DNA of 64,000 nucleotides, taken from an uncultured Enterobacterales bacterium. Its GTDB lineage: Bacteria; Myxococcota_A; UBA796; CAJQPC01. How positions within the stretch are numbered: position 1 is the stretch's first letter; each line of letters begins with the position of its first letter. Below the pieces are notes generated by a model that worked only from the letters and a program-made list of their open reading frames with translations, had not been told where the DNA came from and ran no database searches. The stretch spans positions 3,408-67,407 of the forward strand of contig CAZRYF010000013.1 in the NCBI GenBank assembly GCA_964604165.1, given 5' to 3'. Positions 347 to 37,290 of this stretch are shown piece after piece. The position numbers and the translations under genes are program-made.

Positions 347-430
347 GAGGGCGTGTGCATCTCAAGGCGGGGGGTTGGAATCGGGGTATCGGCTGCCTGG
401 ATCCCTGTCAACGCGTACACTCATCGCACC

Positions 431-3827: not shown

Positions 3828-3892
3828 GAGGGGAGAAGGAGGGAGGGGGGGCGTGGGGTGCGTACCCTCGAACCTCGAGAGGAGTTCTGGAG

Positions 3893-4284: not shown

Positions 4285-4516
4285 GACCGGCTCCGCTCGT
4301 ATGCGGCTCTGGCGCCTTCCGGCGACAACCCGCGGGTTTATGAAACACCAGCGTCCCATTCCGGGATGATGACATTTGCGAATCGGAGCTGGTCACTCCA
4401 AATGGTCTAGCTGATACGAACTCGACGTTCACCTGACCCGACATGCAACTGAAGTTGGTGTTCCCTGTCACTCAGATTCCGTTGAGAATCGGATCTGTTC
4501 AATTCGTCATCGTCAC

Positions 4517-4560
4517 CCCCCGTGTCTCCATCCCCCGTGTCTCCATCCCCGGTGTCTCCT
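4517..4560. repeat. Short tandem repeat (15-bp unit, about 3 copies)
   Basis: CCCCCGTGTCTCCAT occurs at 4517-4531 and 4532-4546, followed by the degenerate CCCCGGTGTCTCCT at 4547-4560. Related GTGTCTTC and GCGTCTCC cores lie at 4566-4573 and 4604-4611. Confidence 0.8.
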
Positions 4561-4618
4561 CCAGAGGTGTCTTCTGTGCCCGCCCTCGGGAATGTCTTGG
4601 GGTGCGTCTCCTGTGCGC

Positions 4619-5938
4619 TTACTGGGGTGCCGGCGCTCCCGTGTCCGTCGGCTCGTCGTCGACTGGCTCGGCGGGGATCTCCCCCGTCAGCAGGTAGTTC
4701 ACCAGCTCGGTGGACCGACCGAAATCCCCGTTGCTGAACACATGCGCCGACTCCCCTGTGTTCTGGACCCAGGCCCCCTCCACCGTCGACAGGGACTGCG
4801 CCAGGGAGTCGTAGTGGGTCTCTGGCAGGGGAATTCGCGGATCCGCGTCCGAGTAGATCACCGCCGTGCGCATGCCGGTGAAACCCCCGGTGCTGGCCAG
4901 CTGGCTCAGGGAGGTCTGGCTCCAGGTGGGCTCGGGACGCTCCGGGTCTTCCCCATCAAAGTTGTAGACCCGCTGCAGTCCGACCCGCTCCGCGGAAAAG
5001 CTGTCGAGGGTCGCCCAGGAGGTCAGGTCCTCCACGGGCGCATCCAGCAGGACGCCGGCGACCGGGGGCATGTCCGCTCGGCGCAGCAGATCCGCCACAC
5101 CCCGCGCCCCGTCCCCGAGTCCCACCAGATACAGCTGCTCCAAGTCCAGGTTCAGGGCCACCTGGCTGTCGTGGGACACGGCGAACTCCAGGTCCTGGAG
5201 GAAGCGAATCATCCACCAGGCAAAGGTGTGGCCGTTTCGGATGACTCCCAGGTCGGCCGCCAGGTCGTTGGGGCTGTCCTCGACGCCGTTGTGCCACAGG
5301 TCTCCCCAGCAGTTGATGGGGTAGACACCCACCATTCCAGCCTCCACCATCGCGGCGGGCAGGCTGCCGGTGTTGTTCTCCGTGGGGTCTACTGAGTCGC
5401 CCTGGCCCAGGGTCTCCCAGACCTTCTTGATGCCCCAGTCCCGGTGAAGACGTGTCACCGAACCGACGCCGCCCCGGTAGTGCTCGCCGGCGAGGGGATC
5501 GGCTGGGTCAGGGGCGAGCACGTAGTCAAATGCCGAGGAGTGCAGAACGACTGCCACGGGGGAACTGGTGGAACCCATGGGTTCACCCTCTCCGCTGTCC
5601 ACTGTGCCTGTGTCGGCTGTGTCCGGGAGAGGCGGCGGCGTGGTGCCGGTGTCTTCCCCCGAGTCTTCCCCGCTGTCACTTCCGCTGTCCTCCACCGGAT
5701 CCTCGACCACAATGGGTTCGGTCTCCTCGGTCTTTTCGCTGTTGTACACCACGTAGAACCGGGCGGGCTGGCCATCGGGGCACAACAGGGCCGGCTGCGG
5801 TTCATAGGACAGAATCGCACCGCTCTGGGTGGCGAGATCCGGATGCCGGAAGGGCACCGCGCTGAGCTCGCTCGTGGAGGGGGTACGCCAGCAGCCGGCG
5901 AGGAGAGGCAAGACGGCAAGAAAGGAAAGGCGTGGCAC
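4619..5938 (-). CDS. lipoprotein of unknown function with an acidic Asp/Glu/Ser/Gly/Thr linker
   Basis: Frame of ORF 4619-6055. The start is placed at GTG 5938, 6 nt after GGAGAA, giving MPRLSFLAVLPLLAGCW with lipobox LLAGC. Low-complexity linker EDPVEDSGSDSGEDSGEDTGTTPPPLPDTADTGTVDSGEGEP is followed by a globular domain of about 300 aa. Confidence 0.65.
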   Translation of the reverse strand: MPRLSFLAVLPLLAGCWRTPSTSELSAVPFRHPDLATQSGAILSYEPQPALLCPDGQPARFYVVYNSEKTEETEPIVVEDPVEDSGSDSGEDSGEDTGTTPPPLPDTADTGTVDSGEGEPMGSTSSPVAVVLHSSAFDYVLAPDPADPLAGEHYRGGVGSVTRLHRDWGIKKVWETLGQGDSVDPTENNTGSLPAAMVEAGMVGVYPINCWGDLWHNGVEDSPNDLAADLGVIRNGHTFAWWMIRFLQDLEFAVSHDSQVALNLDLEQLYLVGLGDGARGVADLLRRADMPPVAGVLLDAPVEDLTSWATLDSFSAERVGLQRVYNFDGEDPERPEPTWSQTSLSQLASTGGFTGMRTAVIYSDADPRIPLPETHYDSLAQSLSTVEGAWVQNTGESAHVFSNGDFGRSTELVNYLLTGEIPAEPVDDEPTDTGAPAPQ

Positions 5939-5964
5939 TCGGTTTCTCCAGCCAGGGCAGGGTA

Positions 5965-6687: not shown

Positions 6688-6749
6688 TTTGTCGCGGTCC
6701 TTGGGAGGGTCGGCTACTAGGATAGCGCGCTCCACAAGGGGAGGAGAAC

Positions 6750-7232
6750 GTGCGCTGGCACATGCTGGACCGAATTGACGAAATGGTGCAGGGCGAGCAA
6801 GCCCGCGGCACAAAGAGCTGGCCGGAAGACCTGGAGTTTTTCCAGGATCACTTCCCGGGGTTTCCCGTGGTGCCCGGTGTCCTTTTGTTGGAAGCAATGG
6901 CCCAGCTCGCAGGAAAGCTCATCGGCTACACCGTGCGCCTGGAGCGGGGAGACTGGCCCTTTCCAGTGTTCAGCATGGCGGAGAAGGTGAAGTTTCGTCG
7001 GTTTGTTCGCCCTGGTGACGAGGTGGAGCTGGTGGCCCGCTTTTTGGCCCTTCGGGAGGAGAGCGCGGTCATGCGCGTGGAGGCACGAGTGGACGGCCGG
7101 CGACATGCCCAGGCGGAGCAGACCTTTGTCTTCAATGCGGTGCCTTTTGAGAACGCCGCCGAGAGCGAGAACGTGGAGCGTCTGGAGCGCGCGGAGATGA
7201 AGCGCCTGTGGGCGGAGTGCCCGGACGAATGA
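6750..7232 (+). CDS. FabZ/FabA-like beta-hydroxyacyl-ACP dehydratase (hotdog fold)
   Basis: FFQDHFPGFPVVPGVLLLEAMAQLAG matches the FabZ active-site block HFPxxPxxPGVLxxEAxAQ. It is the first gene of a plus-strand run with stop/start overlaps. Confidence 0.85.
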   Translation: MRWHMLDRIDEMVQGEQARGTKSWPEDLEFFQDHFPGFPVVPGVLLLEAMAQLAGKLIGYTVRLERGDWPFPVFSMAEKVKFRRFVRPGDEVELVARFLALREESAVMRVEARVDGRRHAQAEQTFVFNAVPFENAAESENVERLERAEMKRLWAECPDE

Positions 7233-8425
7233 CGCGGGAGAGAGTGGTCGTCACCGGCATGGGGGTCGTGACTCCCTTGGGGGAGGATCTGCCCTCCACG
7301 TGGAAGGCTCTGGTAGCGGGTCGCTCGGGGATAGGGCCCATTCGCCGCTTTGATGCCTCCGGATTCGATGTGACCTTCGCCGCAGAGGTGGACTCACTCC
7401 CGGAGGAAGACCCCGCTTCCCTGAAGGAGCGGCTGGTCTGCGTGGCGCTGGAGGAGGCGATGCGCGGGGCCGGTCCCCTCACCATGGATCCGGCGCGGAT
7501 TGGGGTCTGCCTGGGGTCCGAGTCGGCCCGCCCCTCCCTCTCCGTGGTGGCCCGACGCTATCGAACCGGTGCGCTTCCAACCCTGGCAGATCTGATGCGA
7601 AATGCCGCCTCTGCCCCGACCCAGGCCGTTGCGGAGCGTGTCGGTGCAAAGGGAATAATGTCCACAATATCCACCGCTTGCACGTCTTCCTCCCAGGCTG
7701 TGGGTGAGGGGGCTCTTCGCCTTCGCCGAGAAGAAGCTGACGTGATGATTGTCGGGGGAGTGGACGTGCTGGTGGGGCCCCTGATGTTGACAGGCTTCTC
7801 CTTGCTGGGGGCGCTGTCAACCCGAAACCACGATCCAAGCGGCGCCTCTCGTCCCTTTGATCGGGATCGGGATGGGTTCGTGCTGGGAGAGGGGGCCGGA
7901 ATCCTGGTCTTGGAGAGGGAGTCGGTGGCACGGTCCCGTGGGGCCGAGATCCTGGCTGAAGTCAGTGGATACGGCTGCTCCAGCAATGCCTGGCGCATCA
8001 CCGATTCACCCCCGGACGGGCGCGGCGCAGCGCAGGCCATGGCGCTAGCCCTGCAGGATGCCGGTCTCGCCCCTGAGGATGTGGGGTACATCAACGCGCA
8101 TGGCACCTCGACCCCCATGAACGATCCTTCTGAGACCCGGGGAATCCAGCGGGTCTTCAAGGGGGCCCAGCCATGGGTGTCCTCCACCAAGTCCATGATG
8201 GGGCACCTGGTGGCAGCATGTGGAGCTGTCGAAGCCATTGTTTGTGCCCAGGCAATTCGCACCGGTGTTCTCCCTCCCACCATCAACCTGGACCATCCGG
8301 ACCCCGGCTGTGAGATGCGGCATGTCTCCCCGGGGGCGGTGGAGGAGGCCGTGGACCATGCGCTCACGAATGCCTTTGGATTCGGGGGTTCCAATGGCAG
8401 CCTGGTGATTTCGAGGGCGCCATGA
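7229..8425 (+). CDS. beta-ketoacyl-ACP synthase (FabF/FabB-type KS, catalytic Cys-His-His intact)
   Basis: ATG 7229 overlaps the upstream TGA (ATGA at 7229-7232). The sequence shows RVVVTGMGVVTPLG, active-site STACTSSSQAVG, NAHGTSTPMND and MMGHLVAACG. Confidence 0.9.
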   Translation: MTRERVVVTGMGVVTPLGEDLPSTWKALVAGRSGIGPIRRFDASGFDVTFAAEVDSLPEEDPASLKERLVCVALEEAMRGAGPLTMDPARIGVCLGSESARPSLSVVARRYRTGALPTLADLMRNAASAPTQAVAERVGAKGIMSTISTACTSSSQAVGEGALRLRREEADVMIVGGVDVLVGPLMLTGFSLLGALSTRNHDPSGASRPFDRDRDGFVLGEGAGILVLERESVARSRGAEILAEVSGYGCSSNAWRITDSPPDGRGAAQAMALALQDAGLAPEDVGYINAHGTSTPMNDPSETRGIQRVFKGAQPWVSSTKSMMGHLVAACGAVEAIVCAQAIRTGVLPPTINLDHPDPGCEMRHVSPGAVEEAVDHALTNAFGFGGSNGSLVISRAP

Positions 8426-9303
8426 GCCTCCGGGCACGGGTCACCGCTGTCGAGTTGGTGTGTGCTCTGGGGATGGGTCCGAGGGAGGTGCGGGCCCGCT
8501 TGGTTGCAGGCGAGACCGGGGTGGTGCCCTGCGAGGTGCCTGGATCGCCGGTATCCCACGTGGCGCCCGTTCAGGGACCCTGCCGACCGAACCTCACCCG
8601 TCGGCGGGATCGAAAGCTCTTTTCCCGTTCAGCCACCCTCCTGCTCATGGCGGCGCAGCGGTCCCTGGAAGGTTGGGAAGGAGACCTGGAGACCCTGGGG
8701 CTCTTTGTGGGTGTGCGCCGGGAACCCCCCGACACCGGAGAGGCGGATGCCGCCATCCTTGCCTCTGCAAGCAACGGTCGCCTCTCCAGCTCGCTCCTGG
8801 CCACCGCTGGGCGAGACCTGTACCCGCCTTTGCAGCCACTTCGCACCCTGCCCAACATGGCCCTGGCACACGTGGCGATTCAGCTGGGGATTCGCGGTGA
8901 GTCTGGCGTGTCCGCCGGGGGACCGGCGGCGGGGGTCATGGCGCTGCGGGAGGGAATCGCAGCGGTGGCGGAAGGAAGGTGCTCAGCGGCACTGGTGGGA
9001 GCTGCAGATTCTTGGTTGGAGGAAGGAAGTCTACGAGACTGGGCTCGCCTGGGGCGCACGCCTCCGCCTGGAGAAGCTGCAGTGGTGTTTCGAATTGAGG
9101 CGGGGGATGGCCCGGCGCCCTTGGGCTGGCTGACTCGGGGAGAGGCCGGGGGGGGAGGGGCGGTTGCACCCGCAACACACTGGGACCGGCTGGGACATTG
9201 TGGCGTGGCAGATGCCCTGGTGGGGGCGGTCCTCGGAACGGCTGGAATTCGAGGTGTGGAGACGACCGGCGCCTGGGCGGAAGCACTGTGGCAGAAGGAG
9301 TGA
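8422..9303 (+). CDS. KS-like chain-length-factor-type partner protein (no catalytic Cys)
   Basis: ATGA overlap with the KS stop (8422-8425). It is 293 aa with a KS-N-terminal-like layout (ARVTAVELVCALG..., NMALAHVAIQLGIRGESGVSAGGPAAGVMAL, ALVGAADS), but the Cys position reads SAGGPAAG and there is no HGT or GH block. Confidence 0.65.
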   Translation: MSLRARVTAVELVCALGMGPREVRARLVAGETGVVPCEVPGSPVSHVAPVQGPCRPNLTRRRDRKLFSRSATLLLMAAQRSLEGWEGDLETLGLFVGVRREPPDTGEADAAILASASNGRLSSSLLATAGRDLYPPLQPLRTLPNMALAHVAIQLGIRGESGVSAGGPAAGVMALREGIAAVAEGRCSAALVGAADSWLEEGSLRDWARLGRTPPPGEAAVVFRIEAGDGPAPLGWLTRGEAGGGGAVAPATHWDRLGHCGVADALVGAVLGTAGIRGVETTGAWAEALWQKE

Positions 9304-9316
9304 TAGGCTTTCTCAC

Positions 9317-11725
9317 TTGTTGGAGCCCGGATTGGCCAACCCTGAGATTGTGAGGCAGTTCGAATTTCTGCGCGAGATCGCCTCGGGCGGGTTTGGAAGC
9401 GTGTATCTCACCAAGGTTGTGCATCCGGATGGATTCTCCCGCATCGCTGCGGTGAAGCTCCTGCACCGGCGATGGAGCGAGAACGAGGAGATTGCCCGGA
9501 GAATGCGGGACGAAGCCCGTCTTCTGGGCTGGCTGCGCCACCGGAACATCGTGGACGTCGTGGACCTCACCTCCCTGGATGGAAGGGCGGCCATCATCAT
9601 GGAGTACCTGGAGGCGGTGGACCTCAAGGCTCTTGTGCAGGGCCTCGGTGGGACTGAGAATGCCATGGGCCCGCAGGTCTGCCTGCAGGTCATTGCAGCG
9701 GTTTCTTCCGCCCTGGATGCTGCGTTCAACCGCCCTCCCTTCCCCGGTGAGAAACCTCTTCGTGTCATTCACAGGGACATCAAGCCATCGAACATCATGA
9801 TTGATGACTCGGGGCTGGTGAAGGTGCTGGACTTTGGGGTGGCCCGGGCCGAATTCGACGCCCGGGAGTCGGACACCCGAGAGCTTCAATTCGGCTCGAT
9901 TGACTACATGCCTCCGGAACGGCTGCTGTTTGAACCGGAGAGCCCCCGCTCCGACGTCTACTCCCTGGGCGCGACCTTGTTTGAGATGATCACCACGGAA
10001 AAGCTCGGCAAGGCCAAGGGATCCCCGACCAAGCACGCCGCTTTTCTCGCGGATCGGCTCTCTTTTTTGCGGGCAACCACCGCCGTGTCCGGGCCCGCCG
10101 CGACGGAGCTTGAGGCGATGCTGGTGGAGTGCCTTGCCTATGAAGCGACGGACCGACCCGCTGCGGCCTCCCTCGGCGTTCGCTGCCGTGAGTTGGCTCG
10201 GAAATTTGGTGGGCTCTCGTTGCAGGAGTGGTCGGAGAACAACATTCCACCCCTTTTGGTCATAAGCGCCGAGTCCGGGGACAAGTACAACCCCATGACC
10301 GGCCGGGTGCTCACGGAGGATCGGGTCTCCCTGGGAGGAGACGGCCGCGTGGTGGGACGGGAACAGCCAGAGGCTCGTGTTGGCCAAACCGAAACGCTGC
10401 CCGAATTGTCCAGTGGAGGCCCCCCCACGCTGGCTGAGCTTCGTTCCATTGAGGTGACGGACCTTGGCGGGGCGGTTCTGGGCGACGGTCCCGGCGGGGA
10501 AGACCTGGAAGAGCCCACCCGACTGGATGACCCTGCGGGCCCCAAAGTCGAGGCTGACGAGGCCACGCGGATCGAGCCAGCCGGGTCGGCACCGGAAGAG
10601 GATTGGGAGGATGCAGCCACACGCCTGGAGGACCCAGCAGAGCTCAAGGCGCGCCTGATGGCGGAAATGGGGGACGAGTCGGGCCCAGATTCCACGGAAG
10701 CCGCGGAGCAGGAAACAGAACCCGAGCTCGGGGGCGTCGACGAGCTGCAAATTGTGGAGACAGACAAAGAGGTCAGCGGGCCTGTCTCCAACGTCATGTC
10801 GGAGATCTCTGTTCCCAGGAGTCTGCCGACCCGGCCGGTTGGTTTGGATCCCTCTTTGCCCCTGGCAGTGCCCGGGACTGGCTTGCTTGGACCTGGAATC
10901 GTTGATGGTGCCACTCTGACCGAGGATTCCGACGGAGCAGACGGAGTGGGGGATGGACCCACCCAGATGATGCCGGAGGAGGAGATTCTCGGGCACATTC
11001 CGGAACCTGGAGGAAGCGACCCGACCCGGCTTATGCCCGCTGGGTCGGGTTCGCCCTTGCCCTCCGCACCCGCTCTGCCGTCTGCGCCGCCATCAGCCTC
11101 TCCGCCGCGTTTGGACAAAAGCCCCAGCGAGGCCGGGGGACTGGCCTCCGCGCCGCCCATGCCAGAAGAATCCGCCGCGGGTCTGGGCAGCGAGACCGTG
11201 TTTACGAGCGTTGGGGGAGATGGTCTGACGGATGATGGAACCGACACCACTGTGGTGCACCGTGTGGCAGCTTCCTTTCTGGTGTTTGGCCTCGCCCTGG
11301 CGGTGGGCCTGGGGGCGGGGTCGCTTCTGTTCAAGGAGGAGTTGTTTGGAGCGTCTGGCGTGGTGACGTCCTTGTTCGGGGGCGGGGAAGCCGCGAACGA
11401 GCCGCCTCCACCCGAGGTGGTGGCGCCTCCCGTCGTGCCTCCCCCCGTGGAGGAACCAGTGGAAGAAGACCCCCTCGCGGGCTTCAATGGCACCACGGTG
11501 GCGTTTGAATCCCTGATGGAAGGAACTCGTCGGCTGACCGTGTCCTGTGAGGGCGGCATTCGCGAAAGTGGTCGCACCACGGTGGTGCTTTCTACACCCA
11601 CGGTGACCAGGTGTGTGATCACGGCGCTGGGGGAGGGGGGCGCACGAAAGACTGTAGTGGTGCAAGACATCCGTGCCGGTCTCACCCAGTGCTTCGAGGG
11701 CGGAAAGGCCGCCTGTAGCAGCTGA
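9317..11725 (+). CDS. Hanks-type Ser/Thr protein kinase with long acidic linker, one TM helix and a small Cys-containing extracytoplasmic domain
   Basis: Frame of ORF 9164-11725. The start must lie after the upstream stop at 9303 (TTG 9317 or GTG 9350). Kinase signatures: IASGGFGSVY, AAVKLL, VIHRDIKPSNIM, LDFGVA, DYMPPE. The TM segment AASFLVFGLALAVGLGAGSLLF lies at about 11263-11332. Confidence 0.9.
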   Translation: MLEPGLANPEIVRQFEFLREIASGGFGSVYLTKVVHPDGFSRIAAVKLLHRRWSENEEIARRMRDEARLLGWLRHRNIVDVVDLTSLDGRAAIIMEYLEAVDLKALVQGLGGTENAMGPQVCLQVIAAVSSALDAAFNRPPFPGEKPLRVIHRDIKPSNIMIDDSGLVKVLDFGVARAEFDARESDTRELQFGSIDYMPPERLLFEPESPRSDVYSLGATLFEMITTEKLGKAKGSPTKHAAFLADRLSFLRATTAVSGPAATELEAMLVECLAYEATDRPAAASLGVRCRELARKFGGLSLQEWSENNIPPLLVISAESGDKYNPMTGRVLTEDRVSLGGDGRVVGREQPEARVGQTETLPELSSGGPPTLAELRSIEVTDLGGAVLGDGPGGEDLEEPTRLDDPAGPKVEADEATRIEPAGSAPEEDWEDAATRLEDPAELKARLMAEMGDESGPDSTEAAEQETEPELGGVDELQIVETDKEVSGPVSNVMSEISVPRSLPTRPVGLDPSLPLAVPGTGLLGPGIVDGATLTEDSDGADGVGDGPTQMMPEEEILGHIPEPGGSDPTRLMPAGSGSPLPSAPALPSAPPSASPPRLDKSPSEAGGLASAPPMPEESAAGLGSETVFTSVGGDGLTDDGTDTTVVHRVAASFLVFGLALAVGLGAGSLLFKEELFGASGVVTSLFGGGEAANEPPPPEVVAPPVVPPPVEEPVEEDPLAGFNGTTVAFESLMEGTRRLTVSCEGGIRESGRTTVVLSTPTVTRCVITALGEGGARKTVVVQDIRAGLTQCFEGGKAACSS

Positions 11726-11730
11726 ATCAC

Positions 11731-12942
11731 TTGGACGGCCGGGATGTGGTCGTCACCGGCGTGGGCTCGATCTGCGCGTACGGACGTGGACTGGAGGCTT
11801 TGGCCCAGGGATTGAGAGGCCATCGAACCGGCCTGGGGCCGCTGACAGCGTTTGACCCAGGGGGGCTGCCCATTGCTTGTGCTGCCCAGGTCAACGTGCC
11901 CCTGGAGGGCCACCCGGATCTGCGAGACGATCGAAAGGGCCAGCTGGCACTGGCTGCAGCCCGGGATGCGCTGAAGTCCGCGGGGCTTGAGGAGGCACAG
12001 GGGGCCGGGGTGTGGCTGGGCACCGGGCTTTCGTCTGTCACGCCGGGGGAGCTGGAGGAGGACGTCTTTCCGCACCTTTCGGATCGGGGGTTGGATCGGG
12101 AGGCGGTCTTGGGAGACCTGGCACGGGATCGCGCGGCGCCCTGGCGACACCTGCCCGAGCGGGTCACCGAGTGGGTGGCAGAGGAGTCCGGGGCCCAGGG
12201 GCCGCGGTACACCTCCTTCTCCGCTTGCGCTGCGGGTGCCCAGGCCATCGCTGAGGCATGGAGGGCCGTGCGGCGCGGAGAGGTCGAGGTGGCGCTTTGC
12301 GGAGGACATGACTCCATGATCCACCCCCTCGGGGTGCTTTCCTTCGTGGTGCTGGGTGCGCTCTCCTCTGGGGAGTGCCGACCTTTTGATGTAGGGCGAG
12401 ACGGGTTTGTGATCGGCGAAGGAGCCGCGGTTTTGGTTCTGGAGACCGCACGGCGGGCCCAGGCCCGGGGGGCAAGACCCCTCGCGAGGATTCTCGGGGC
12501 GGGTACGTCGGTGGATGCCTACCAACCCACCGCCCCCCATCCGGAAGGCCGCGGTGCCATCCTGGCTATGGAGCGGGCACTGGCAGATGCCTCCATGGCT
12601 CCCGAGGATGTGGACCACGTGAATGCCCACGGGACGGGCACCCCCCTGGGAGATGGCATCGAGGCCCACGCAGTGTCCCAGGTTCTGGGAAGCGAGGTGC
12701 CAGTCTCTTCCATCAAGGGCGGTCTGGGCCACTGCATTGCCGCGGCCGGGGCCGTGGAGGCGGCGGCCTGCGTGGCAGCCTTGGAAGGGGGTTGGACTCC
12801 CGGAACCCTGGGTCTGAAGTCGCTCGAAGATCTTCCAATTACCGTGCAGGAAGAGCCCAGGGACGACGCCCCCAGGGTCATCCTGTCCAACAGCTTTGGA
12901 TTTGGCGGGCAGAACTGCGCCCTGATCTTGGGTCGGGCCTGA
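11731..12942 (+). CDS. beta-ketoacyl-ACP synthase (second KS, Cys-His-His intact)
   Basis: It starts 5 nt after the kinase stop. The sequence shows [40 protein letters not shown] and [10 protein letters not shown]. Confidence 0.9.
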
Positions 12943-13061
12943 CATACGTGTCGCGCCCCAGGCGCTTTTCACGTTGTGTTACGGGGTGGTTTGGCGTGAT
13001 TCCAGGTATTTGAGCGGGGGCGCGACCTTTGCGTTGGGTGTTTACAACCCCAGGAGATCCT

Positions 13062-13525
13062 ATGTCCCGCGCTCATTCTCTCTCCACCCTTCCCGTTCTC
13101 GCGTTGCTGCTCGGCTTCACATCAACGGGTGGGTGTCAGAGGAGACCCATGAGAAGATCCCGGACCTGATCCCCGCCGGCATCATCAATGAGCTGACCCG
13201 CCTGGAGATGCGCACCAAGTCGCTGTTGAGTGAGCCCTTGCAGGCTTTGGGCATGGTGGATGCGTTTGACCCCAGCGCGGCTGACTTCGCTGGGATCAGC
13301 GCCGAGCCGGACCTGGTCCTCACGGCGGCGATCCACGAGGCCTTCGTGAAGATCGACGAGGAAGGCACGGAAGCCGCGGCTGCCACCGCCGTGGTGGTGG
13401 GTGCGACCTCCGCTCCCATGATGGAGGAGGTGGTCGTGGACCATCCGTTCCTGTTTCTGGTGAGGGACCGCATCACGGACTCGGTGATCTTCATCGGTCG
13501 CGTGGCCGACCCCAGCGCTGGATAG
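13062..13525 (+). pseudogene. serpin relic (lipoprotein signal peptide out of frame with internally deleted serpin core)
   Basis: ATG 13062 follows AGGAG (13052-13056) and encodes MSRAHSLSTLPVLALLLGFTSTGGC, then stops after 35 codons. A different frame (ORF 12974-13525) carries serpin blocks INGWVSEETHEKIPDLIP and, directly after TRL, the C-terminal part LGMVDAF...IHEAFVKIDEEGTEAAAATAVVVGA...VVVDHPFLFLVRDRITDSVIFIGRVADP. Only about 155 of the expected roughly 400 residues are present. Confidence 0.6.
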
Positions 13526-13595
13526 GTCCCAAAGGGGACCCGGATCTCGCCCCGCCCGCTCCTCTCGGATACCCACCCGGGAGGAGCGGTTGCGT

Positions 13596-14510
13596 ATGTC
13601 AGACGGCTTTGTCTTTTCTGGCCAGGGGAGCCAGTACGTGGGCATGGGGGTCCAGCTGGATCATCCGGCGGCCCGCGAGGCCTTCGCAGAGGCAGACGAC
13701 GCCCTGGGGGAGGACTTGTCCACGCTGTTGCGCGAAGGGCCGATGGAGGCGTTGACATTGACCGAGAACGCCCAGCCGGCAATTCTTGCCCACTCGGTGG
13801 CCTTGTTGCGGGTGCTCGCGGACCTGCACCCCAAGATTCAGCCAACGGTGGCCGCGGGCCACTCCCTGGGGGAGTACTCGGCCCTGGTGGCCGCGGGGGC
13901 CCTGCAATTCCAGGATGCGGTGCGGCTTGTGCGGCTTCGGGGACAAGCCATGCAGGCGGCTGTGCCCGCGGGAATCGGCGGCATGGCCGCCATCATGGGG
14001 TTGGATGCACCTGCCCTGGAGGCCCTGTGCAAGGTGGCCGCCGAGGACGAGGTGGTGGAGGTGGCTGGCCACAACTCTCGGGTCCAGGTGGTGGTGGCAG
14101 GACACCTGGGGGCCCTGGAGCGGTTGATGAAGGCAGCGCGGGAAGCGGGGGCCCGGCGGTGCGCCCCACTGCAGGTCTCGGCACCTTTTCACTGCTCGCT
14201 GCTCGCCCCTGCGGGAGAGGTGCTCTCTGAAGCGCTGGAGAATGTGGAAATTCAACCTCCCCGCTTTCCCGTGTTTCAGAATGCAACAGCCGCCGCAAGC
14301 GATGATCCTGTGGCCATTCGCAAGGCCCTCGTGGACCAGGTCAGCTCACCGGTGCGGTGGGTGGAGTGCGTGGAGGCCATGCAGTCTTTGGGGGTAAGGC
14401 GTTTTCTGGAGCTTGGACCCGGCCGCACCCTGACCGGACTGATCAAGCGGGTGGATCGATCCCTGGAAGCTCTGGCGCTGGATCGCACAGGCACCCTGGA
14501 GGCCCTCTGA
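13596..14510 (+). CDS. fabD: malonyl CoA-ACP transacylase
   Basis: ATG 13596 lies 8 nt after GGAGGAG. The sequence shows FVFSGQGSQYVGMG, GHSLGEYSALVAAG, VRLRGQAMQ and VSAPFHCSLL. Confidence 0.9.
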   Translation: MSDGFVFSGQGSQYVGMGVQLDHPAAREAFAEADDALGEDLSTLLREGPMEALTLTENAQPAILAHSVALLRVLADLHPKIQPTVAAGHSLGEYSALVAAGALQFQDAVRLVRLRGQAMQAAVPAGIGGMAAIMGLDAPALEALCKVAAEDEVVEVAGHNSRVQVVVAGHLGALERLMKAAREAGARRCAPLQVSAPFHCSLLAPAGEVLSEALENVEIQPPRFPVFQNATAAASDDPVAIRKALVDQVSSPVRWVECVEAMQSLGVRRFLELGPGRTLTGLIKRVDRSLEALALDRTGTLEAL

Positions 14511-15334
14511 TGCGCCGGGTCTCCGTGGCGGGTTTGGGTCTGCTTTGTCCGGCGGGCGTGGGACAAGAAGGGGTCGAGGGGGGCCGGCCGGGGGAGGTTC
14601 CCGGCTTTCGGGCGCGTGCCTACATTGAGGACCGAAAGTCTCTCAAGCTCATGAGTCGCGCGGTCAAGCTTGGGGTCAGCGGCGTGCGTCTTGCCCTCGC
14701 AGAGACGCCGGGGTGGGAAGCCGTCCCACCGGAGCGCAGAGCCATGTACGTGGGCATGACGCCGCTGGGGGGGGAAAGTGACGATCTGTTGCCGGCCCTG
14801 GATGCCAGCACGTCGGAAGACGGCACGCTGGACATGTCCCGGTTTGCAGCAGAAGGTGTGCCTTTGATTCACCCCCTCTGGCTGGTCAAGGGTCTGTCCA
14901 ACAACATCCTTGGATTTGCCTGTGCGAACCATGACTTTCAGGGGACCAATGCCTGCTACTGTCAGGGAATCGAGTCGGGCCTTGTGGCGGTGTACGAGGG
15001 CTATCGAGCCGTGGCCGAGAACCGGGCGGACCTTGCGGTAGTGGGGGGCGCCGACTCCTTTCTGGATGCCCAGCCCTTGTTTGCTGGACGACGCATGGGA
15101 GAGGGGGCGGGTTTTCTGGTGTTCCGGGCTGCGCAGGCCGGGGACCGCTGGCAGGTGGAGAATGGGCCCCATGAGAACCCGCCGGTGGAGGAACACCTCT
15201 TGGGGGTGCTGGGAGCAGCCCGCGTGCCGGTGGGGTTGGTGCGTGGCCTCTTGCGTGGCCAGAATACCGGTCTCACCTTGTCAAGGGATTGTGGTCTTTC
15301 AATCTCACAAGCAGACCCGGGTCATTCTCGGTAG
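14510..15334 (+). CDS. KS-N-terminal-like protein (second CLF-type partner, no canonical active site)
   Basis: Frame of ORF 14357-15334. ATG 14510 shares its A with the fabD TGA. It encodes 274 aa: RVSVAGLGLLCPAGVG, IHPLWLVKGLSNNILGFACANHDFQGTNACYCQGIESG, AVVGGADS. There is no HGT or GH block. Confidence 0.6.
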   Translation: MRRVSVAGLGLLCPAGVGQEGVEGGRPGEVPGFRARAYIEDRKSLKLMSRAVKLGVSGVRLALAETPGWEAVPPERRAMYVGMTPLGGESDDLLPALDASTSEDGTLDMSRFAAEGVPLIHPLWLVKGLSNNILGFACANHDFQGTNACYCQGIESGLVAVYEGYRAVAENRADLAVVGGADSFLDAQPLFAGRRMGEGAGFLVFRAAQAGDRWQVENGPHENPPVEEHLLGVLGAARVPVGLVRGLLRGQNTGLTLSRDCGLSISQADPGHSR

Positions 15335-15361
15335 AATCTGCCACTGCACCGCAACAAGGAC

Positions 15362-15835
15362 ATGTACGCAACTGCCCTGTCGCAATCGAAACCAATGACC
15401 GATCCCCAAGACCCTGAAATTTTTCGCGGGGTCCGCGCTGCTTTTGCCGAGGCCTTGGGCCTTGACGATGACGAAGTGGAGTACGACGCCACCATCATCG
15501 AAGAGCTGGGCGCGGAGTCCCTGGACCTCCTGGACATCGTGTTCCGCCTGGAGCGCACCTTCGACATCCGCATACCCCGGGGAGGCGTCGAGGAGGCGGT
15601 GCGTGCTGCCCTGGAGGAAGGGGAGACCCTGGAGACGCATGGCATTCTCACGGAGGTGGGCTTGCGCCGTCTTCGCCTGGCCATGCCCGAGGTACCAGAT
15701 GAGTTCTTCAAGGAGGGACTGAAAACCAGCGAGATTCCGCTGCTCTTTCGGGTCTCGACCTTCTGCCGTCTGGTGGCCGAGCTTCTGGAGGCCAAGCGGG
15801 CCGAGGAGCCCGAAGGTGGTCCTCACCTGGTCTGA
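15362..15835 (+). CDS. acyl carrier protein with a roughly 70-aa C-terminal extension
   Basis: EELGAESLDLLDIVFRLERTF is the phosphopantetheine attachment block (the Ser in ESLD). An alternative start is ATG 15395. The total of 146-157 aa compares with about 80 for ordinary ACPs. Confidence 0.75.
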   Translation: MYATALSQSKPMTDPQDPEIFRGVRAAFAEALGLDDDEVEYDATIIEELGAESLDLLDIVFRLERTFDIRIPRGGVEEAVRAALEEGETLETHGILTEVGLRRLRLAMPEVPDEFFKEGLKTSEIPLLFRVSTFCRLVAELLEAKRAEEPEGGPHLV

Positions 15836-16830
15836 TGCCTGATCCGCGGCAGTTTGCATTCCTGGTGCATCCTCTCTCCCCATTCCAGCGAAGGGTGATG
15901 GGGGTACGCCGCGGCCACTTGGGTGCGGCTGTTGGCATGAAGGCCCCAGACCTGGCGTCAGGAGAGCTGTGCCGGTTTGGCGTGGGGGAGGCCCTGGAGG
16001 GCCGGGTGATCGCGCTCCCTCTTCTTCCGGGGACGCTGTTGGAAGATCAGGCCGGGGCGGTGAGTGCCATGAGACAGGTCACCGAGAGCCTGGAAGGGGT
16101 ACAAGCCGTGGGGCTGGGCTCCCTCTTGGCTGTGGTGGGCGGGCGAGGAGAGGAGCTGGCCCGTCGGGTGGACGTTCCCATTACCACCGGGGCAGCGGCC
16201 ACCGCATGGGCGGCCGCTGGCAATGCCCTGGAGGTGGCCCGCGCTGTGGGAGAGGAGCGGGTGGCTGTGTTGGGTTTCGGGGGAGCGGTGGGAGAGGCGG
16301 TGGCGAGACTCCTGGTGCGAAATGGGCTGCAGGTGCTTGCGGTCGGAAAGGGCAAAGCGCCCACGCGGCGAGCGGAAGAGGTTGGAGTTTCCCTGCGTTC
16401 CGTGGAGGAAGCGCTCGGGGCCACTCGGGTCGTCGTTGGGGCCGCCACGAGCGGCGGGGCTCTTGCGCCGGAGATCCTCCAGACGGAGACAGTCCTTGTG
16501 GACGTGGCGCTGCCGTCGACGCTTGCGCCGGGGCCTGTGCCAAGGGGGGTCCAGGTTCTTGCCGGAGAGGCCATGGAGCTTCCGCCGGGTTGGAGGCGTG
16601 GATTCTGGGGTTGGCTTTACCACTTCATCTCCGGCTACGGGCCGGGACAGATCTATGCCTGCCTTGCAGAGCCGCTGGTGATGGCCGCCCAGGGCCGGAC
16701 ACGGCCCTACGCCCAGGGCCGCGCGGTGGTACCGGAGGATCTGGAGGCGTTCTGCCGAGATGCAGAGGCCCTGGGCTTGAAGCATCGGTTGGCGACGGGT
16801 TGGCGACGGGTTGCTACCCTCGGAGGGTGA
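15835..16830 (+). CDS. long-chain acyl-ACP reductase (AAR)-like NAD(P)-dependent oxidoreductase
   Basis: ATG 15835 shares its A with the ACP TGA. The protein is collinear, from my recollection of cyanobacterial AAR, over the whole 331 aa: FAFLVHPLS (FGLIGHLTS), GRVIALPLLPGTLL, AVGLGSLLAVVG, ITTGAAATAW (FTTGNTHTAY), RVAVLGFGGAVGEAVARLL (Rossmann), VLVDVALP, GQIYACLAEPLVMAAQG (MFACFAEAMLLEFEG, catalytic Cys conserved). Confidence 0.6.
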   Translation: MPDPRQFAFLVHPLSPFQRRVMGVRRGHLGAAVGMKAPDLASGELCRFGVGEALEGRVIALPLLPGTLLEDQAGAVSAMRQVTESLEGVQAVGLGSLLAVVGGRGEELARRVDVPITTGAAATAWAAAGNALEVARAVGEERVAVLGFGGAVGEAVARLLVRNGLQVLAVGKGKAPTRRAEEVGVSLRSVEEALGATRVVVGAATSGGALAPEILQTETVLVDVALPSTLAPGPVPRGVQVLAGEAMELPPGWRRGFWGWLYHFISGYGPGQIYACLAEPLVMAAQGRTRPYAQGRAVVPEDLEAFCRDAEALGLKHRLATGWRRVATLGG

Positions 16831-18464
16831 AGCCCTCCCTCTTTCACCGGATTGCGTCCCGCAAGGCCCTGGTCGCCGAGGCGGTTCTCCTGGCCGTGCT
16901 CCTCTGGCTCGGGTGGCGGGTCTGGCCCATGGGGGGCGGCGAGGGAATGCCTTTCTGGGCCACCCGCCATGACCAGATGATCTCTGGTCCCGATGCTGGG
17001 GCCTGGGCGGCGGGTGCGCGGGCGCTTGCAGAGGGCCGGCTTGGAGACCTGGATGCCCACCGGATGCCCACCTGGATTGTGTTGACGGTTCTGGCCCATG
17101 TGGGGTACCCCCTGCTCTTGGCGGGACACCTGGTGAACCACCTGTTGCAATTCCTATTGCCGGTGGTGGTGTACGGGGTGGGACGAGCTGCCGGAGGCAT
17201 GTGGGTCGGATTTGGCGCAGGGGCACTGGTGGCGGCCAATCCGGTGTTGGTCGCCGCTTCCCGGCGCTTTGGGGTGGATCCCGCGGTGACCTTTGGGGTG
17301 CCGGCGCTGGTCGCGGTCTGCTTGTGGGGGGCTCGATCACCCAAACGATCTGTCTTGGCCGGCGGGGTTGCAGCGGCTGTGGGGGCAACACACTTCACGA
17401 CGCTGGGCTTTCCCTTGGCTGGCCTCCTGGGCATGGGTCTCTTGGCGCGGCGGGGAAAGAGGGTGCTGGTGCTCGTGGGGTACGGCGTGGGTTTGGGGCT
17501 TGCCTGGGGGGCTCTTTTTTCGGTGTTCCCCTGGGCGGGTTTCAGGGGGCTTCTTCTCGCGGTCCCCGAGGGCATCACTCCCGGGGAGTTTCCCCTTCAA
17601 GGCAGCCCCACCGCTGTCTGGGGGCCGGCCCTGGAGATCATGCGATCGGGCGCCTCCACCGCAGTGGAGGATGCGGTCACCGGAATGGCCCGGCTCCTGC
17701 GTCCAGGTTGGCTTCCCTGGGGGGCTTCTGTGACTTTTCTCTGGCTGGGGGTGCCGGGGTTGGCTCTGAAACCCCGCCGGGAAGACCTGTCGGGTTGGCG
17801 CCGCTGGCGGGGGGAGTCGTGCTGGAAGAGCGGCCTGCTTCTGGTGGTCTGCCTCGCCCCCCTGCCGCTGTTCGCCGCTGCGGATGCGGAGCCCCGGTAC
17901 AGCCACAACCTGCTTCCCGTCGCTGCGCTGCTCATGGTGCGCGGGTGCGTGAGCGGCGCATCTCTGGTGGAACGCGTGGTGCTGGAACGGGTCCCTTTGG
18001 AGCGCTGGCCCCGTGGGCTTCTGGGGGCAGTGTGCGGTGTCGGGCTCGCCTTGGGCTACATCCAGAGCTCCGGGGTCAGTCGGAATCAACAACCTCCCCC
18101 CTTGTTCGGCGTGGTCGCCATGGAGATCGGGGAGGCGGTCACCTCCCACTTTCCTGGACAGGGGGGGCTCGTGTGCGATCTAAGGGAAGTAGAGGCCTAC
18201 ACGGCCCGCCGCACTTGCCCCGGCACGGTCTGCCCCCCGGTGGCCAATGCCGGCGCCTTTGACTTCTGCCTGTCGATTCTGCGGGCGGAGTGTGATGGAG
18301 ACGGACCCATTCCGTATGTGGCGCTGAACCGGGGACCCATGGACGAGCGGACCGACGCCAAGGCCGCATTCGATGCCTGGATCGTGGAGTCGTTCGGGAC
18401 CGTCCAGCGGGTTCGCATCGGACCCTTCGATGCGCAGCTGGTGGAAATTCCACGCTCGCCCTAG
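16827..18464 (+). CDS. polytopic membrane protein, GT-C-like (ArnT/PMT-type) glycosyltransferase candidate
   Basis: Frame of ORF 15969-18464. The start is GTG 16827, overlapping the upstream TGA (GTGA). It has about 12 hydrophobic segments followed by a soluble Cys-containing C-terminal domain. The family call rests on architecture only. Confidence 0.45.
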   Translation: MKPSLFHRIASRKALVAEAVLLAVLLWLGWRVWPMGGGEGMPFWATRHDQMISGPDAGAWAAGARALAEGRLGDLDAHRMPTWIVLTVLAHVGYPLLLAGHLVNHLLQFLLPVVVYGVGRAAGGMWVGFGAGALVAANPVLVAASRRFGVDPAVTFGVPALVAVCLWGARSPKRSVLAGGVAAAVGATHFTTLGFPLAGLLGMGLLARRGKRVLVLVGYGVGLGLAWGALFSVFPWAGFRGLLLAVPEGITPGEFPLQGSPTAVWGPALEIMRSGASTAVEDAVTGMARLLRPGWLPWGASVTFLWLGVPGLALKPRREDLSGWRRWRGESCWKSGLLLVVCLAPLPLFAAADAEPRYSHNLLPVAALLMVRGCVSGASLVERVVLERVPLERWPRGLLGAVCGVGLALGYIQSSGVSRNQQPPPLFGVVAMEIGEAVTSHFPGQGGLVCDLREVEAYTARRTCPGTVCPPVANAGAFDFCLSILRAECDGDGPIPYVALNRGPMDERTDAKAAFDAWIVESFGTVQRVRIGPFDAQLVEIPRSP

Positions 18465-18512
18465 GGCTGCGGATGGCATAGAACGCGGCCAACCTCAAGA
18501 GGGAGCGGTGGT

Positions 18513-19865
18513 TTGTCCGAGCGTGTGCCCGAGCCAAAGAAGGTCTTCATCAAGACCTTTGGCTGCCAGATGAATGTCTACGACAGCGGCAAGATGCAGG
18601 CGCTGTTGGGGAAGGACGGGTACGAGCCGGTGGACAGCCCGGAAGAGGCAGATCTGGTGCTTGTGAACACGTGCTCTGTGCGGGACAAGCCGGAGCAGAA
18701 GCTCTACTCCTTTATCGGTGAGGTCAAGCATCTTCGCAGCCAGGGAACCACCATCGGCATCGCGGGCTGCATGGCCCAGCATGATGGGGAGCGTCTCTTC
18801 AAGAAGTACAAGAAGGACGTGGACCTGGTGTTTGGTCCCGATCAGGTGCCGCGCATCCAGGATCTCGTGGAGCGGGCCGGTTCTGAGCGGGTGCTGGACA
18901 ACCGATTCATGGACGTGGACCACTACCCCTTCGTGCGAGAGCTCGCCCCCAAGCACGCTGCCGGGGTGGGGGCGTTTGTCACCATTCAGAAGGGTTGCGA
19001 CAACCGGTGTACCTTCTGCATTGTCCCCGCGACCCGGGGGGTCGAGGTCTCCCGTCCGTCCGGGGAGATCCTGGAGGAGGTGCAGGCGCTGGCGGAGCGG
19101 GGCAGCAGGGAGATCACTCTGATCGGCCAGAACGTGAACTCCTATGGACTCAAGGTGGATGGGGAGATCACCTTTGCCCAGCTGCTATACGCCGTGGCCA
19201 AGGTGCCCGGTGTGGAGCGCATTCGATACACCACCTCCCACCCCCGGGACATGGGGCCGGACGTGGTGCAAGCCTACCGGGACCTTCCGGAGCTCACCTC
19301 CCACCTCCATCTGCCCGTCCAGTCCGGGTCCAACCGGGTCCTGCGCCGCATGAAGCGCTTTTACTCCCGGGAGCACTACCTGCAGGTGGTGGCGGACCTG
19401 CTGGAGGCCCGCCCGGACCTGTCCCTGAGCACGGACGTCATTGTGGGATTCCCCGGGGAAACCGACGCCGACTTTGCGCAGACCATGACGCTGCTGGAAG
19501 AAGTGCGGTTCGACGGATCCTTCTCCTTCAAGTACTCTCCGCGCCCGGGCACACCGGCTCTGCGCATGGAGTCGGAGGCCGTGCCAAACGAGGTCGCTTC
19601 GGCGCGGCTCCAGTGCTTTCAGGATCGCCAGCGAGAGCTGCAGATGGAGTCGAACCGGGCCATGGAGGGACAGGTCCACGAGATCCTTGTGGAAGGCCGA
19701 AGTAAGTGGGAAGAAGACGTGGCCTGCGGCCGCACCGGTACCTTCAAGATGGTGAACTTTCCCGGCACCCCCGACCTGGTGGGGCGCACGGTGCCGGTGA
19801 GAATTCTGCGGGGCTTCTCCAATTCCCTTCGAGGGGAGCTGTTGGCCTTGCCCGACGGCCCTTGA
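18513..19865 (+). CDS. miaB: tRNA-2-methylthio-N6-dimethylallyladenosine synthase
   Basis: KVFIKTFGCQMNVYDSGKM (UPF0004 domain), the radical-SAM motif CDNRCTFCIVP, and a C-terminal TRAM-like region. Confidence 0.9.
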   Translation: MSERVPEPKKVFIKTFGCQMNVYDSGKMQALLGKDGYEPVDSPEEADLVLVNTCSVRDKPEQKLYSFIGEVKHLRSQGTTIGIAGCMAQHDGERLFKKYKKDVDLVFGPDQVPRIQDLVERAGSERVLDNRFMDVDHYPFVRELAPKHAAGVGAFVTIQKGCDNRCTFCIVPATRGVEVSRPSGEILEEVQALAERGSREITLIGQNVNSYGLKVDGEITFAQLLYAVAKVPGVERIRYTTSHPRDMGPDVVQAYRDLPELTSHLHLPVQSGSNRVLRRMKRFYSREHYLQVVADLLEARPDLSLSTDVIVGFPGETDADFAQTMTLLEEVRFDGSFSFKYSPRPGTPALRMESEAVPNEVASARLQCFQDRQRELQMESNRAMEGQVHEILVEGRSKWEEDVACGRTGTFKMVNFPGTPDLVGRTVPVRILRGFSNSLRGELLALPDGP

Positions 19866-19934
19866 AAGAGAGCCCACGACGTCTTAATCGGCGGCGCAGG
19901 TCGTTCAGGAAGAACGGCTCCAGGAGCAATTGCA

Positions 19935-24802: not shown

Positions 24803-24808
24803 AGACAG

Positions 24809-37282: not shown

Positions 37283-37290
37283 GAGCGAAC

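Follow-up and report, generated by a model that had tools for sequence, protein, structure and literature searches.

A two-ketosynthase operon with half-size chain-length factors, an embedded receptor kinase and a probable aldehyde-releasing reductase in uncultured Myxococcota

The stretch of DNA analysed here (the window) comprises 64 kb of contig CAZRYF010000013.1 from an uncultured member of the Myxococcota, and its plus strand carries an operon with two ketosynthase (KS) genes, KS1 and KS2, and two genes for half-size chain-length factors (CLF1 and CLF2). We consider it reasonably probable that this operon encodes a dedicated acyl-chain assembly line, resembling type-II fatty acid synthases (FAS) and polyketide synthases (PKS), whose specialised lipid product is released as an aldehyde. 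Pfam and NCBIfam profiles confirmed the plus-strand order FabZ, KS1, CLF1, kinase, KS2, serpin fragment, FabD, CLF2, acyl carrier protein (ACP), reductase and membrane protein (Table 1). Direct reading of the DNA gave ATGA stop/start overlaps at 7229-7232 (FabZ/KS1) and 8422-8425 (KS1/CLF1), TGATG overlaps at 14510 (FabD/CLF2) and 15835 (ACP/reductase), and a GTGA overlap at 16827-16830 (reductase/membrane protein). On L082 (L numbers denote related loci), a 136-kb contig from an ocean metagenome that belongs to the same organism, public gene calls made independently yielded the same genes with the same lengths. The gene list and the overlaps given in a preliminary description of this DNA were thus borne out by profiles, by direct reading and by public gene calls. 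Our gene models rest on homology and on these public calls; GC3-based calling is ambiguous at 65% GC.

Related loci were obtained by scanning one genome per GTDB species with a CLF1 profile, and further loci were taken from metagenome contigs. The scan returned 75 loci, all from uncultured metagenome-assembled genomes (MAGs), many of which are labelled Myxococcota or "Deltaproteobacteria" and some of which bear plainly wrong labels. About 176 relatives of CLF1 were present in the protein collection; the few named ones are all MAG proteins and most are labelled Myxococcota. The preliminary description had proposed gene-neighbourhood conservation as a check, and the core order FabZ-KS1-CLF1-kinase-KS2-(FabD)-CLF2-ACP-reductase, often followed by MiaB, was found to recur in about 80 loci. 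The variable parts of the operon are FabD, the serpin relic and the 545-aa membrane protein. GC content is about 65% across the whole window with no compositional break at the KS/CLF locus, and the operon is flanked in synteny by a true MiaB and an M17 peptidase; uniform composition and flanking synteny therefore indicate a native, old locus. MiaB was ruled out as a radical-SAM enzyme of the pathway, as it is a MiaB equivalog (483 bits against a cut-off of 355), and it is a marker of conserved core-genome synteny that lies outside the pathway. Inheritance of the operon is vertical within a clade of uncultured Myxococcota from marine and freshwater habitats. A rearranged arrangement was seen in five freshwater MAG loci (L044, L058, L062, L067 and L073), which carry KS2-CLF2-FabZ-KS1-CLF1 with the kinase on the opposite strand and no ACP or reductase within 10 kb; inspection of L058 and L067 for ACP and reductase genes found none.

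Table 1. Genes of the operon, followed by the genes upstream of it. The last column gives the loci in which the window protein was found by tblastn over the informative loci, that is, those extending far enough.
Feature	Position	Strand	Profile evidence or remark	Present/informative loci
FabZ-type 3-hydroxyacyl-ACP dehydratase paralogue, 160 aa	6750..7232	+	Pfam FabA 5e-20	63/66
KS1, active FabF-like ketosynthase, 398 aa	7229..8425	+	both KS domains, 2.6e-41 and 4.8e-36	64/67
CLF1, half-size, catalytically dead KS-like partner, 293 aa	8422..9303	+	KS N-terminal domain only, 1.6e-9	
Hanks-type Ser/Thr kinase, 797 aa	9332..11725	+	Pkinase 3.2e-35	62/70
KS2, second active FabF-like ketosynthase, 398-403 aa	11731/11746..12942	+	both KS domains	43/44
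Serpin pseudogene remnant, C-terminal third only	12974..13525	+	Serpin 9.8e-37, profile positions 265-370 of 370	
FabD malonyl-CoA:ACP transacylase, 304 aa	13596..14510	+	TIGR00128 320.4 bits (cut-off 260.9; above)	11/41
CLF2, second half-size dead KS-like partner, 274 aa	14510..15334	+	weak KS N-terminal matches only	34/41
Dedicated acyl carrier protein, 157 aa	15362..15835	+	PP-binding 1.2e-9 at residues 23-72	29/41
AAR-fold acyl-ACP (thioester) reductase, 331 aa, catalytic Cys276	15835..16830	+	PigE N-terminal domain 3.5e-19; AAR 4.7e-4	26/37
Polytopic membrane protein, 545 aa	16827..18464	+	about nine hydrophobic segments; between reductase and MiaB	
GH3-family acyl-acid amido synthetase, 541 aa	431..2056	+	Pfam GH3 N 1.4e-42, M 4.6e-15, C 9.1e-14	12/37 (upstream)
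Small protein with N-terminal hydrophobic segment, 194 aa	2037..2621	-	between GH3 and GT2; no informative Pfam match	
Membrane GT2 glycosyltransferase, HpnB/CruG-like, 381 aa	2682..3827	+	Glycos_transf_2 5.8e-24; Glyco_transf_21 8.1e-11	20/42 (upstream)
g03, predicted lipoprotein (LAGC lipobox), alpha/beta-hydrolase fold	4619..5938	-	no Pfam/NCBIfam match	42/54
g04, partial FGE-sulfatase-like domain, 256 aa	5965..6735	-	Pfam FGE-sulfatase 24.6 bits (cut-off 23.3)	22/61

The catalytic residues of the chain-building enzymes are intact, and all those checked across related loci were invariant, counted over the loci where the site could be aligned. KS1 carries Cys151, His291, Lys321 and His326, with the Cys invariant in 65/65 loci, and KS2 carries the same Cys-His-His-Lys set, with the Cys invariant in 49/49; the two KSs are paralogues that share 39% identity. 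At the position of the active-site Cys, CLF1 has Gly/Pro and CLF2 has Gly/Ile, and the CLF1 family profile aligns to FabF residues ~1-210 only. The alignment thereby upheld the earlier statement that both KSs possess Cys-His-His and that CLF1 lacks the Cys, which is missing from CLF2 as well. CLF1 is presumed to form a heterodimer with KS1, and CLF2 with KS2, because the genes are coupled and because ApeO-ApeC and Iga11-12 provide precedents. FabZ retains its catalytic His34 and Glu48 in 63/63 loci and scored 91.6 bits on TIGR01750 against a cut-off of 155. The ACP has an invariant Ser53 (32/32 loci), scored no higher than 50.1 bits against a cut-off of 71 and fell under every AcpP cut-off; its C-terminal extension of ~80 aa is conserved in relatives up to residue ~145. 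The GHSLG Ser of FabD is invariant in 14/14 loci. The statement in the preliminary description that the cluster has its own FabD is correct for the window, where FabD is at equivalog level, but does not extend to the family, in which FabD lies in the cluster in only a minority of informative loci (Table 1).

Both KSs are distinct from housekeeping FabF. On TIGR03150, the FabF equivalog (cut-off 493.75), KS1 scored 402.6 and KS2 311.4, both below the cut-off; KS1 passed the cut-off of the broad "KAS II" subfamily (399.5 against 387). Among solved structures, the best matches were FabFs (320 bits for KS1 and 251 bits for KS2), while matches to the ApeR/ApeO structures of aryl-polyene (APE) clusters (7f27, 7f28, 6qsp) reached 148-185 bits (KS1 185, KS2 154-160), those to Iga11 about 190 bits, and those to actinorhodin KS-alpha 229 bits (KS1) and 170 bits (KS2). 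A neighbour-joining tree was built without bootstraps from the orthologues, the CLFs and three FabFs (Thermus, E. coli and Pseudomonas), with the KS of the window's type-I PKS as outgroup and with no Myxococcota FabF and no APE KSs included. In this tree, the three FabFs, which come from two phyla, grouped together at 54-67% identity and excluded KS1 and KS2. The KS1 orthologues formed a sister clade to the FabFs with 43-46% identity to them, the KS2 orthologues a separate clade with 35-44% identity, and the CLFs a group of their own. KS1 itself is 43-45% identical to the FabFs. The preliminary description had viewed the operon as a specialised type-II system distinct from both FAS II and canonical APE clusters, and KS scores, tree and structure comparisons all support this view.

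The gene complement points the same way. FabH, FabG and FabI (or FabK/L/V) were found neither in the window nor in the Pfam-annotated neighbourhoods of L001, L002 and L079-L084. The absence of ketoreductase (KR), enoyl reductase (ER) and thioesterase genes noted previously holds across the 64 kb, with no such Pfam domain in the genes scanned and no homologue of the KR found in related clusters. Likewise, the characteristic APE genes, namely the ApeQ KR, the ApeP second dehydratase (DH), the ApeK thioesterase, the acyltransferase, LolA and MMPL, were missing, as reported, from the window and from the annotated related loci. Among the Pfam-scanned window genes there was no cyclase or aromatase domain, and the Gln that replaces the CLF Cys in aromatic type-II PKSs was found in neither CLF. 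Cispentacin-type chemistry (AmcE/AmcF) was ruled out, since the NCBIfam scores of 246, 222 and 30 bits are below the models' own cut-offs and below the FabF/FabZ scores.

Comparison with divergent relatives shows how the operon of the window clade differs from its kin. Five divergent, ancestral-looking loci (L069, L071, L075, L076 and L077) lack the kinase and carry a FabG-like short-chain dehydrogenase/reductase (SDR) directly after CLF2. These SDRs share 54-58% mutual identity, and those of L075 and L076, the two scanned against Pfam, matched adh_short_C2 at 1e-67. In L071, L075 and L077 both CLFs are full length (~390-430 aa). In L076, CLF1 is halved and CLF2 is full length, with KR, ACP, reductase and GT2 all present. 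The window clade carries the kinase, has two halved CLFs and has lost the KR. The full-length CLF2 proteins (L071, L075, L076 and L077; ~430 aa) keep both His residues, and those of L071, L075 and L077 have Gly in place of the Cys. Orthologues of the KR and the kinase co-occur in no locus; this pattern of kinase, KR and CLFs may reflect a single evolutionary event, so its statistics are not independent. An SDR in L044 was ruled out as a cluster KR, given its 33% identity and its distance of 7 kb. Because distant relatives carry a KR, its absence from the window is a derived state, and because sister clusters carry full-length CLFs, the halving was probably independent of ApeC, a CLF with one thiolase fold (PMC8358021). 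None of the ~80 loci encodes an ER, including the KR-bearing, kinase-less relatives.

The set of KS, CLF, ACP, KR and DH without ER that is encoded by the kinase-less L071, L075, L076 and L077 is that of the highly reducing type-II PKS of ishigamide (Iga10-13/16), and the KS/CLF/KR/DH set without ER of the kinase-less relatives matches polyene-forming highly reducing type-II PKSs. Compared with the ishigamide system, which is found in actinobacteria rather than Myxococcota, the window clade lost the KR, halved both CLFs and gained the kinase and the reductase.

The last conserved gene of the operon encodes a protein related to acyl-ACP reductase (AAR). The Cys of its YACLAE motif, Cys276, aligns with Cys294 of AAR (FACFAE) and Cys296 of PigE and is invariant in 43 aligned sequences and in 31/31 loci, and a GFGGAVG motif corresponds to the Rossmann NAD(P)H site. 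Identity to AAR is ~21%, and the TIGR04058 score was 29.9 bits against a cut-off of 449.7. An AlphaFold model made with 43 sequences had a pLDDT of 94.4, and its best structural matches in Foldseek were AAR entries (6jzu, E 1.3e-20, TM 0.78), followed by the terminal amidation domain (TAD) of carmabin (9e56, E 2.3e-14, TM 0.75). The "AAR-like" label of the preliminary description therefore fits the protein both in sequence, through the PigE and AAR profiles, and in fold, through 6jzu. The PigE N-terminal domain converted a thioester to an aldehyde in lysates and was modelled on AAR, with Cys296 conserved (PMC8341465). AAR, which works with aldehyde-deformylating oxygenase (ADO), and the PigE N-terminal domain share the two-domain fold and the aligned Cys with the operon reductase; they act on a carrier-bound thioester and release an aldehyde. 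Unlike them, the operon reductase has no ADO or aminotransferase partner and is tied to an ACP and a KS/CLF system of its own; no ADO-like gene was found near the cluster. In L079, which is otherwise syntenic, a natural fusion of the long ACP and the AAR-fold reductase (4487-5980, protein P0237, 497 aa) occurs and therefore supports a direct hand-over from ACP to reductase. Judged by homology and by the model, the reductase probably releases the ACP-bound product as an aldehyde, a proposal made in the preliminary description that is supported by the AAR fold and the invariant Cys276.

The kinase encoded between CLF1 and KS2 is composed of an N-terminal kinase domain, a low-complexity linker, one transmembrane (TM) helix and a small Cys-containing C-terminal domain that is predicted to lie outside the cytoplasm. 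The catalytic Lys, HRD, Asn and DFG are invariant in 66/66 loci, and the Gly-rich loop has one Gly-to-Thr change in one locus. The kinase has the highest median identity in the operon (65.6%, compared with 60.7% for KS1 and 45.4% for the reductase), and in L081 its gene overlaps the genes on both sides. It is a conserved, translationally coupled member and the best-conserved protein of the operon, not an interloper. In the literature we found no type-II FAS/PKS operon that harbours a highly conserved receptor kinase. Mycobacterial Ser/Thr protein kinases (STPKs) phosphorylate KasA, KasB and FabD and provide a precedent for its role. Most likely, the membrane-anchored kinase would couple an envelope signal to the activity of the KS/CLF/ACP machinery via phosphorylation.

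Starting from the observed gene content, the intact catalytic residues, the conservation, the reductase fold and the non-orthology to FabF, we infer the following pathway. FabD, encoded in the cluster here and drawn from housekeeping FAS II in most relatives, would load malonyl onto the long ACP, and KS1-CLF1 and KS2-CLF2 would extend the chain, most likely over different chain-length stages. With the in-cluster KR lost, housekeeping FabG would act in trans to reduce the beta-keto group, and the FabZ paralogue would then dehydrate. The cluster never includes an ER gene, which makes an unsaturated or polyenic chain probable. The AAR-fold reductase would take the acyl group from the ACP onto Cys276, reduce it with NAD(P)H and free the aldehyde. 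Cellular reductases could convert the aldehyde to an alcohol, and, more speculatively, the HpnB/CruG-like GT2 may glycosylate it to a polyene or alkyl glycoside. The product would thus be an unsaturated or polyene aldehyde or alcohol, possibly glycosylated; we hold its polyene nature with less confidence than the existence of the assembly line itself.

A more specific version of this proposal is tentative. In it, the cluster would make a lineage-defining, PKS-built polyene or very-long-chain alcohol of the cell envelope, possibly glycosylated, that has a role like that of carotenoids or aryl polyenes and is gated by the obligate, co-translated receptor kinase. In that case the kinase would have arrived as the cluster lost its own KR and as both CLFs were halved, independently and convergently.

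Several points weigh against the proposed aldehyde-releasing assembly line. Only FabG acting in trans, a step that is assumed, would provide the dehydratase with a substrate, and an ER could equally act in trans and give a saturated chain. The AAR fold is also shared with the putative terminal amidation domain of carmabin, and the enzyme may therefore off-load the chain by a chemistry that yields no aldehyde. After the reductase, where the next gene varies between loci, no conserved partner that would consume an aldehyde was found. GH3 and GT2 adjoin the operon in only a third to a half of the informative loci, and their adjacency could be general synteny because an unrelated second kinase and the M17 peptidase are also conserved there. 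In eight rearranged loci, neither an ACP nor a reductase gene lies within 10 kb of the KS/CLF genes and the kinase. None of the 75 scanned-genome loci comes from a cultured organism, and the search for a separate FAS II covered the window plus the 10-kb flanks of related loci.

The strongest rival, which we nevertheless regard as doubtful, is that the operon is a saturated very-long-chain fatty aldehyde or alcohol elongase like mycobacterial FAS-II. The two KS systems would act on successive length ranges of a pre-made primer, housekeeping FabG and FabI would carry out the reductions, the kinase would throttle flux, and the aldehyde would serve wax, ether-lipid or alkyl-glycoside synthesis. 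The parts list indeed parallels that of fabD-acpM-kasA-kasB with its STPK control: both systems have two FabF-like KSs, FabD, an ACP with a C-terminal extension, KR and ER functions (in mycobacteria the DH too) encoded elsewhere, and Hanks-kinase regulation. KasA/KasB, too, score well against KS1 and KS2 (207 and 194-199 bits), whose closest match is FabF, AAR acts on saturated C16-C18 acyl-ACP, and if the KR is borrowed, an ER is borrowable as well. However, the relatives that keep their own KR are still without ER, and apart from the unrelated one in L044, no SDR-type protein lies within 10 kb of a kinase-type cluster in ~80 loci. The pairing of a KS with a dead CLF typifies chain-length control as in PKSs and not FAS elongation; the mycobacterial KSs are homodimeric without CLFs. 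In mycobacteria, moreover, the kinases are encoded elsewhere, whereas the operon here contains the kinase and has a reductase to end the pathway.

It is unlikely that the AAR-fold enzyme off-loads the chain non-reductively, by TAD-like amidation or by transfer to an acceptor, to give an amide or ester lipid possibly linked with GH3. The Foldseek match to the carmabin TAD and the amide-forming GH3 ligase nearby fit such chemistry, and the TAD shares the catalytic Cys and is thought not to release an aldehyde (bioRxiv 10.1101/2024.10.28.620694). Yet the TAD is a more distant match than AAR in fold and than the PigE reductase domain in sequence, and the protein, like AAR, stands alone. It also appears, from a reading of its sequence, to have AVGKGK after GxGxxG and so to lack the acidic residue that makes the TAD NAD-specific.

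Quite unlikely, too, is a divergent member of the APE/xanthomonadin/flexirubin group, in which a GH3-activated aromatic starter would be extended to a polyene pigment and later attached to a glycolipid. APE clusters and the operon share a KS with a half-size CLF of the first thiolase fold only, as in ApeC (PMC8358021), a FabZ/ApeI-type dehydratase (precomputed ApeI-like Pfam matches exist in related loci), a dedicated ACP, the lack of an ER, and a GT2 and an adenylating enzyme nearby. In contrast to the one KS/CLF pair and homodimeric KS of APE systems, the operon has two KS/CLF pairs, KSs that score nearer to FabF than to ApeR/ApeO, an embedded kinase and release by an AAR-fold reductase. The window FabZ scored 17.8 on the ApeI-like Pfam family, under the gathering score of 28.5, and the CLF1 profile found Iga12 (1.6e-9) and the actinorhodin CLF in the PDB (E<=0.01) but did not detect ApeC. 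Full-length CLFs in sister clusters imply independent halving, and the half-size CLFs here appear derived from full-length CLFs within their own family. The remaining APE genes are absent, as stated above, and the known products of GH3 enzymes are amides, not thioesters (PMC12493201).

That the condensing system of housekeeping FAS II is this operon or lies within it, with the reductase diverting ordinary acyl-ACP to aldehydes, is very improbable: KS1 passes the "KAS II" cut-off, FabD passes its equivalog cut-off and the locus is ancient, vertically inherited and beside core genes, but KS1, KS2, FabZ and ACP all fail their equivalog cut-offs, KS1 and KS2 branch outside the FabFs of two phyla, dead CLF partners have no role in FAS II, FabH, FabG and FabI are not in the cluster, and FabD is absent from 30/41 loci and must therefore exist elsewhere in those genomes.

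The conserved unit begins at FabZ (6750), and its upstream limit may lie at 431, which would take in GH3, the small TM protein, GT2, g03 and g04; the end at 18464 takes in one non-conserved gene, that of the 545-aa membrane protein. Scans of 3800-20200 for promoters and terminators found no promoter-like site and no intergenic terminator-like site. The start codons of FabZ (plus strand) and g04 (minus strand) are separated by just 14 bp (6735-6750), with no sigma-70-like site found, and because of this spacing both promoters must sit inside the coding sequence of the opposite gene. In 18/62 informative loci, a lipoprotein of 260-330 aa with conserved Cys pairs lies directly upstream of FabZ (L001 7454-8320, L002 7544-8329, L060 7250-8242); neither the window nor its closest relatives have it.

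Two genes within the operon are lineage-specific extras limited to the closest relatives. The 183-aa serpin remnant of the window has an internal deletion, and L004 encodes an intact 447-aa lipoprotein serpin at the same position between KS2 and FabD (12589-13932). The window serpin is therefore a true relic, as the preliminary description had it, and shows that a biosynthetic operon recently acquired a gene for a protease inhibitor, which then decayed. The 545-aa membrane protein occurs only in L004, L005 and contigs of the same organism; it has no Pfam or NCBIfam match even at E<=5, and its earlier "GT-C-like" label was not confirmed.

GT2 and GH3 lie upstream, beyond the coordinates of the preliminary description. 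The GT2 scored 156 bits on HpnB and 139 bits on CruG, a carotenoid glycosyltransferase, both under the cut-offs, and it adjoins the most divergent cluster, L076, too. We regard it as a plausible pathway member and candidate lipid glycosyltransferase. GH3 is possibly a member of the pathway and, if so, a possible tailoring or starter-activating enzyme. It shares its three-domain architecture and a lipid-related context with OlsH of the planctomycete ornithine-lipid pathway (PMC12493201). Its score on the OlsH equivalog was 57 bits against a cut-off of 620, and unlike OlsH it has no OlsI partner and its link to the KS/CLF operon is not universal. The 194-aa protein between GH3 and GT2 is conserved in L002, L004, L010 and L041 and is called as a gene in L082. 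The start of the window falls inside a second Ser/Thr kinase gene (2-361, minus strand; 613 aa in L082 and 607 aa in L002), which is conserved beside GH3 and the M17 peptidase. The intergenic region between GT2 and g03 (3827 to 4619) is longer by 127 bp in L082, judging from coordinate offsets, which may be a strain-level indel or an assembly difference.

The 97 homologues of g03 are all hypothetical proteins and all from this lineage. Its model (pLDDT 90.1) matched esterases and S9 peptidases in Foldseek (E ~1e-6 to 1e-7), and the canonical nucleophile Ser is absent from its GLGDG elbow. The lipoprotein signal peptide and the lack of Ser at the nucleophile elbow ruled g03 out as the missing thioesterase. 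g04 and FabZ are transcribed in opposite directions. A plus-strand open reading frame at 5444-6598 was rejected: it scored lower in tblastn than the genes on the same DNA, g03 and g04, of which it is an antisense shadow.

Elsewhere in the window, a second lipid or polyketide locus lies on the minus strand (29092-38955). It includes a GH3-like gene (37291-38955), 29% identical to that at 431-2056, beside a 2088-aa synthase with AurF-like di-iron, AMP-binding, KS, AT and PS-DH domains and two PP-binding matches, and it continues with an acyl-CoA dehydrogenase and a 2-oxoacid_dh-like acyltransferase. With two such loci, GH3 therefore stands beside chain-building enzymes twice in this genome. Directly downstream of MiaB, on the plus strand (19935-28049), is a complete-looking menaquinone set (polyprenyl synthase, UbiE/MenG, MenF, MenD, UbiA/MenA, MenC and MenE) that is not conserved beside the KS/CLF operon in other loci. 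A flagellin gene (48708-49562, minus strand; Flagellin_N 3.3e-29, Flagellin_C 1.8e-18) is present in this Myxococcota-type genome; classical myxobacteria glide and have no flagella. Two giant secreted-type proteins made of Cu-binding_MopE repeats (39040-44784 and 60657-62795) were also found, one with 19 repeats and FG-GAP, the other with five repeats and a lamin-tail domain (LTD), and similar proteins (MopE/TSP3, LTD or PKD) stand on the flanks of the cluster in L001 and L076.

In the literature we found no description of a Myxococcota KS/CLF system, of GH3 with KS, ACP and glycosyltransferase genes, or of a type-II PKS with an acyl-ACP reductase. The operon represents a new wiring of familiar parts, in which two pairs of a KS and a half-size CLF are combined with a long ACP of their own and an AAR-fold enzyme for release. 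It occurs in uncultured lineages of a phylum prized for natural products and is a defined target for heterologous expression and for ocean and lake lipidomics. AAR-fold reductases are sought for aldehydes, alcohols and alkanes, and this family adds ~170 new sequences tied to a private ACP. The series of CLF reduction, from both full length through one halved to both halved, suggests more than one origin of the ApeC-type half CLF and provides a route to asking how much CLF a KS needs. If the embedded kinase is regulatory, kinase control of lipid chain synthesis, known from mycobacteria, would become directly testable in a compact system.

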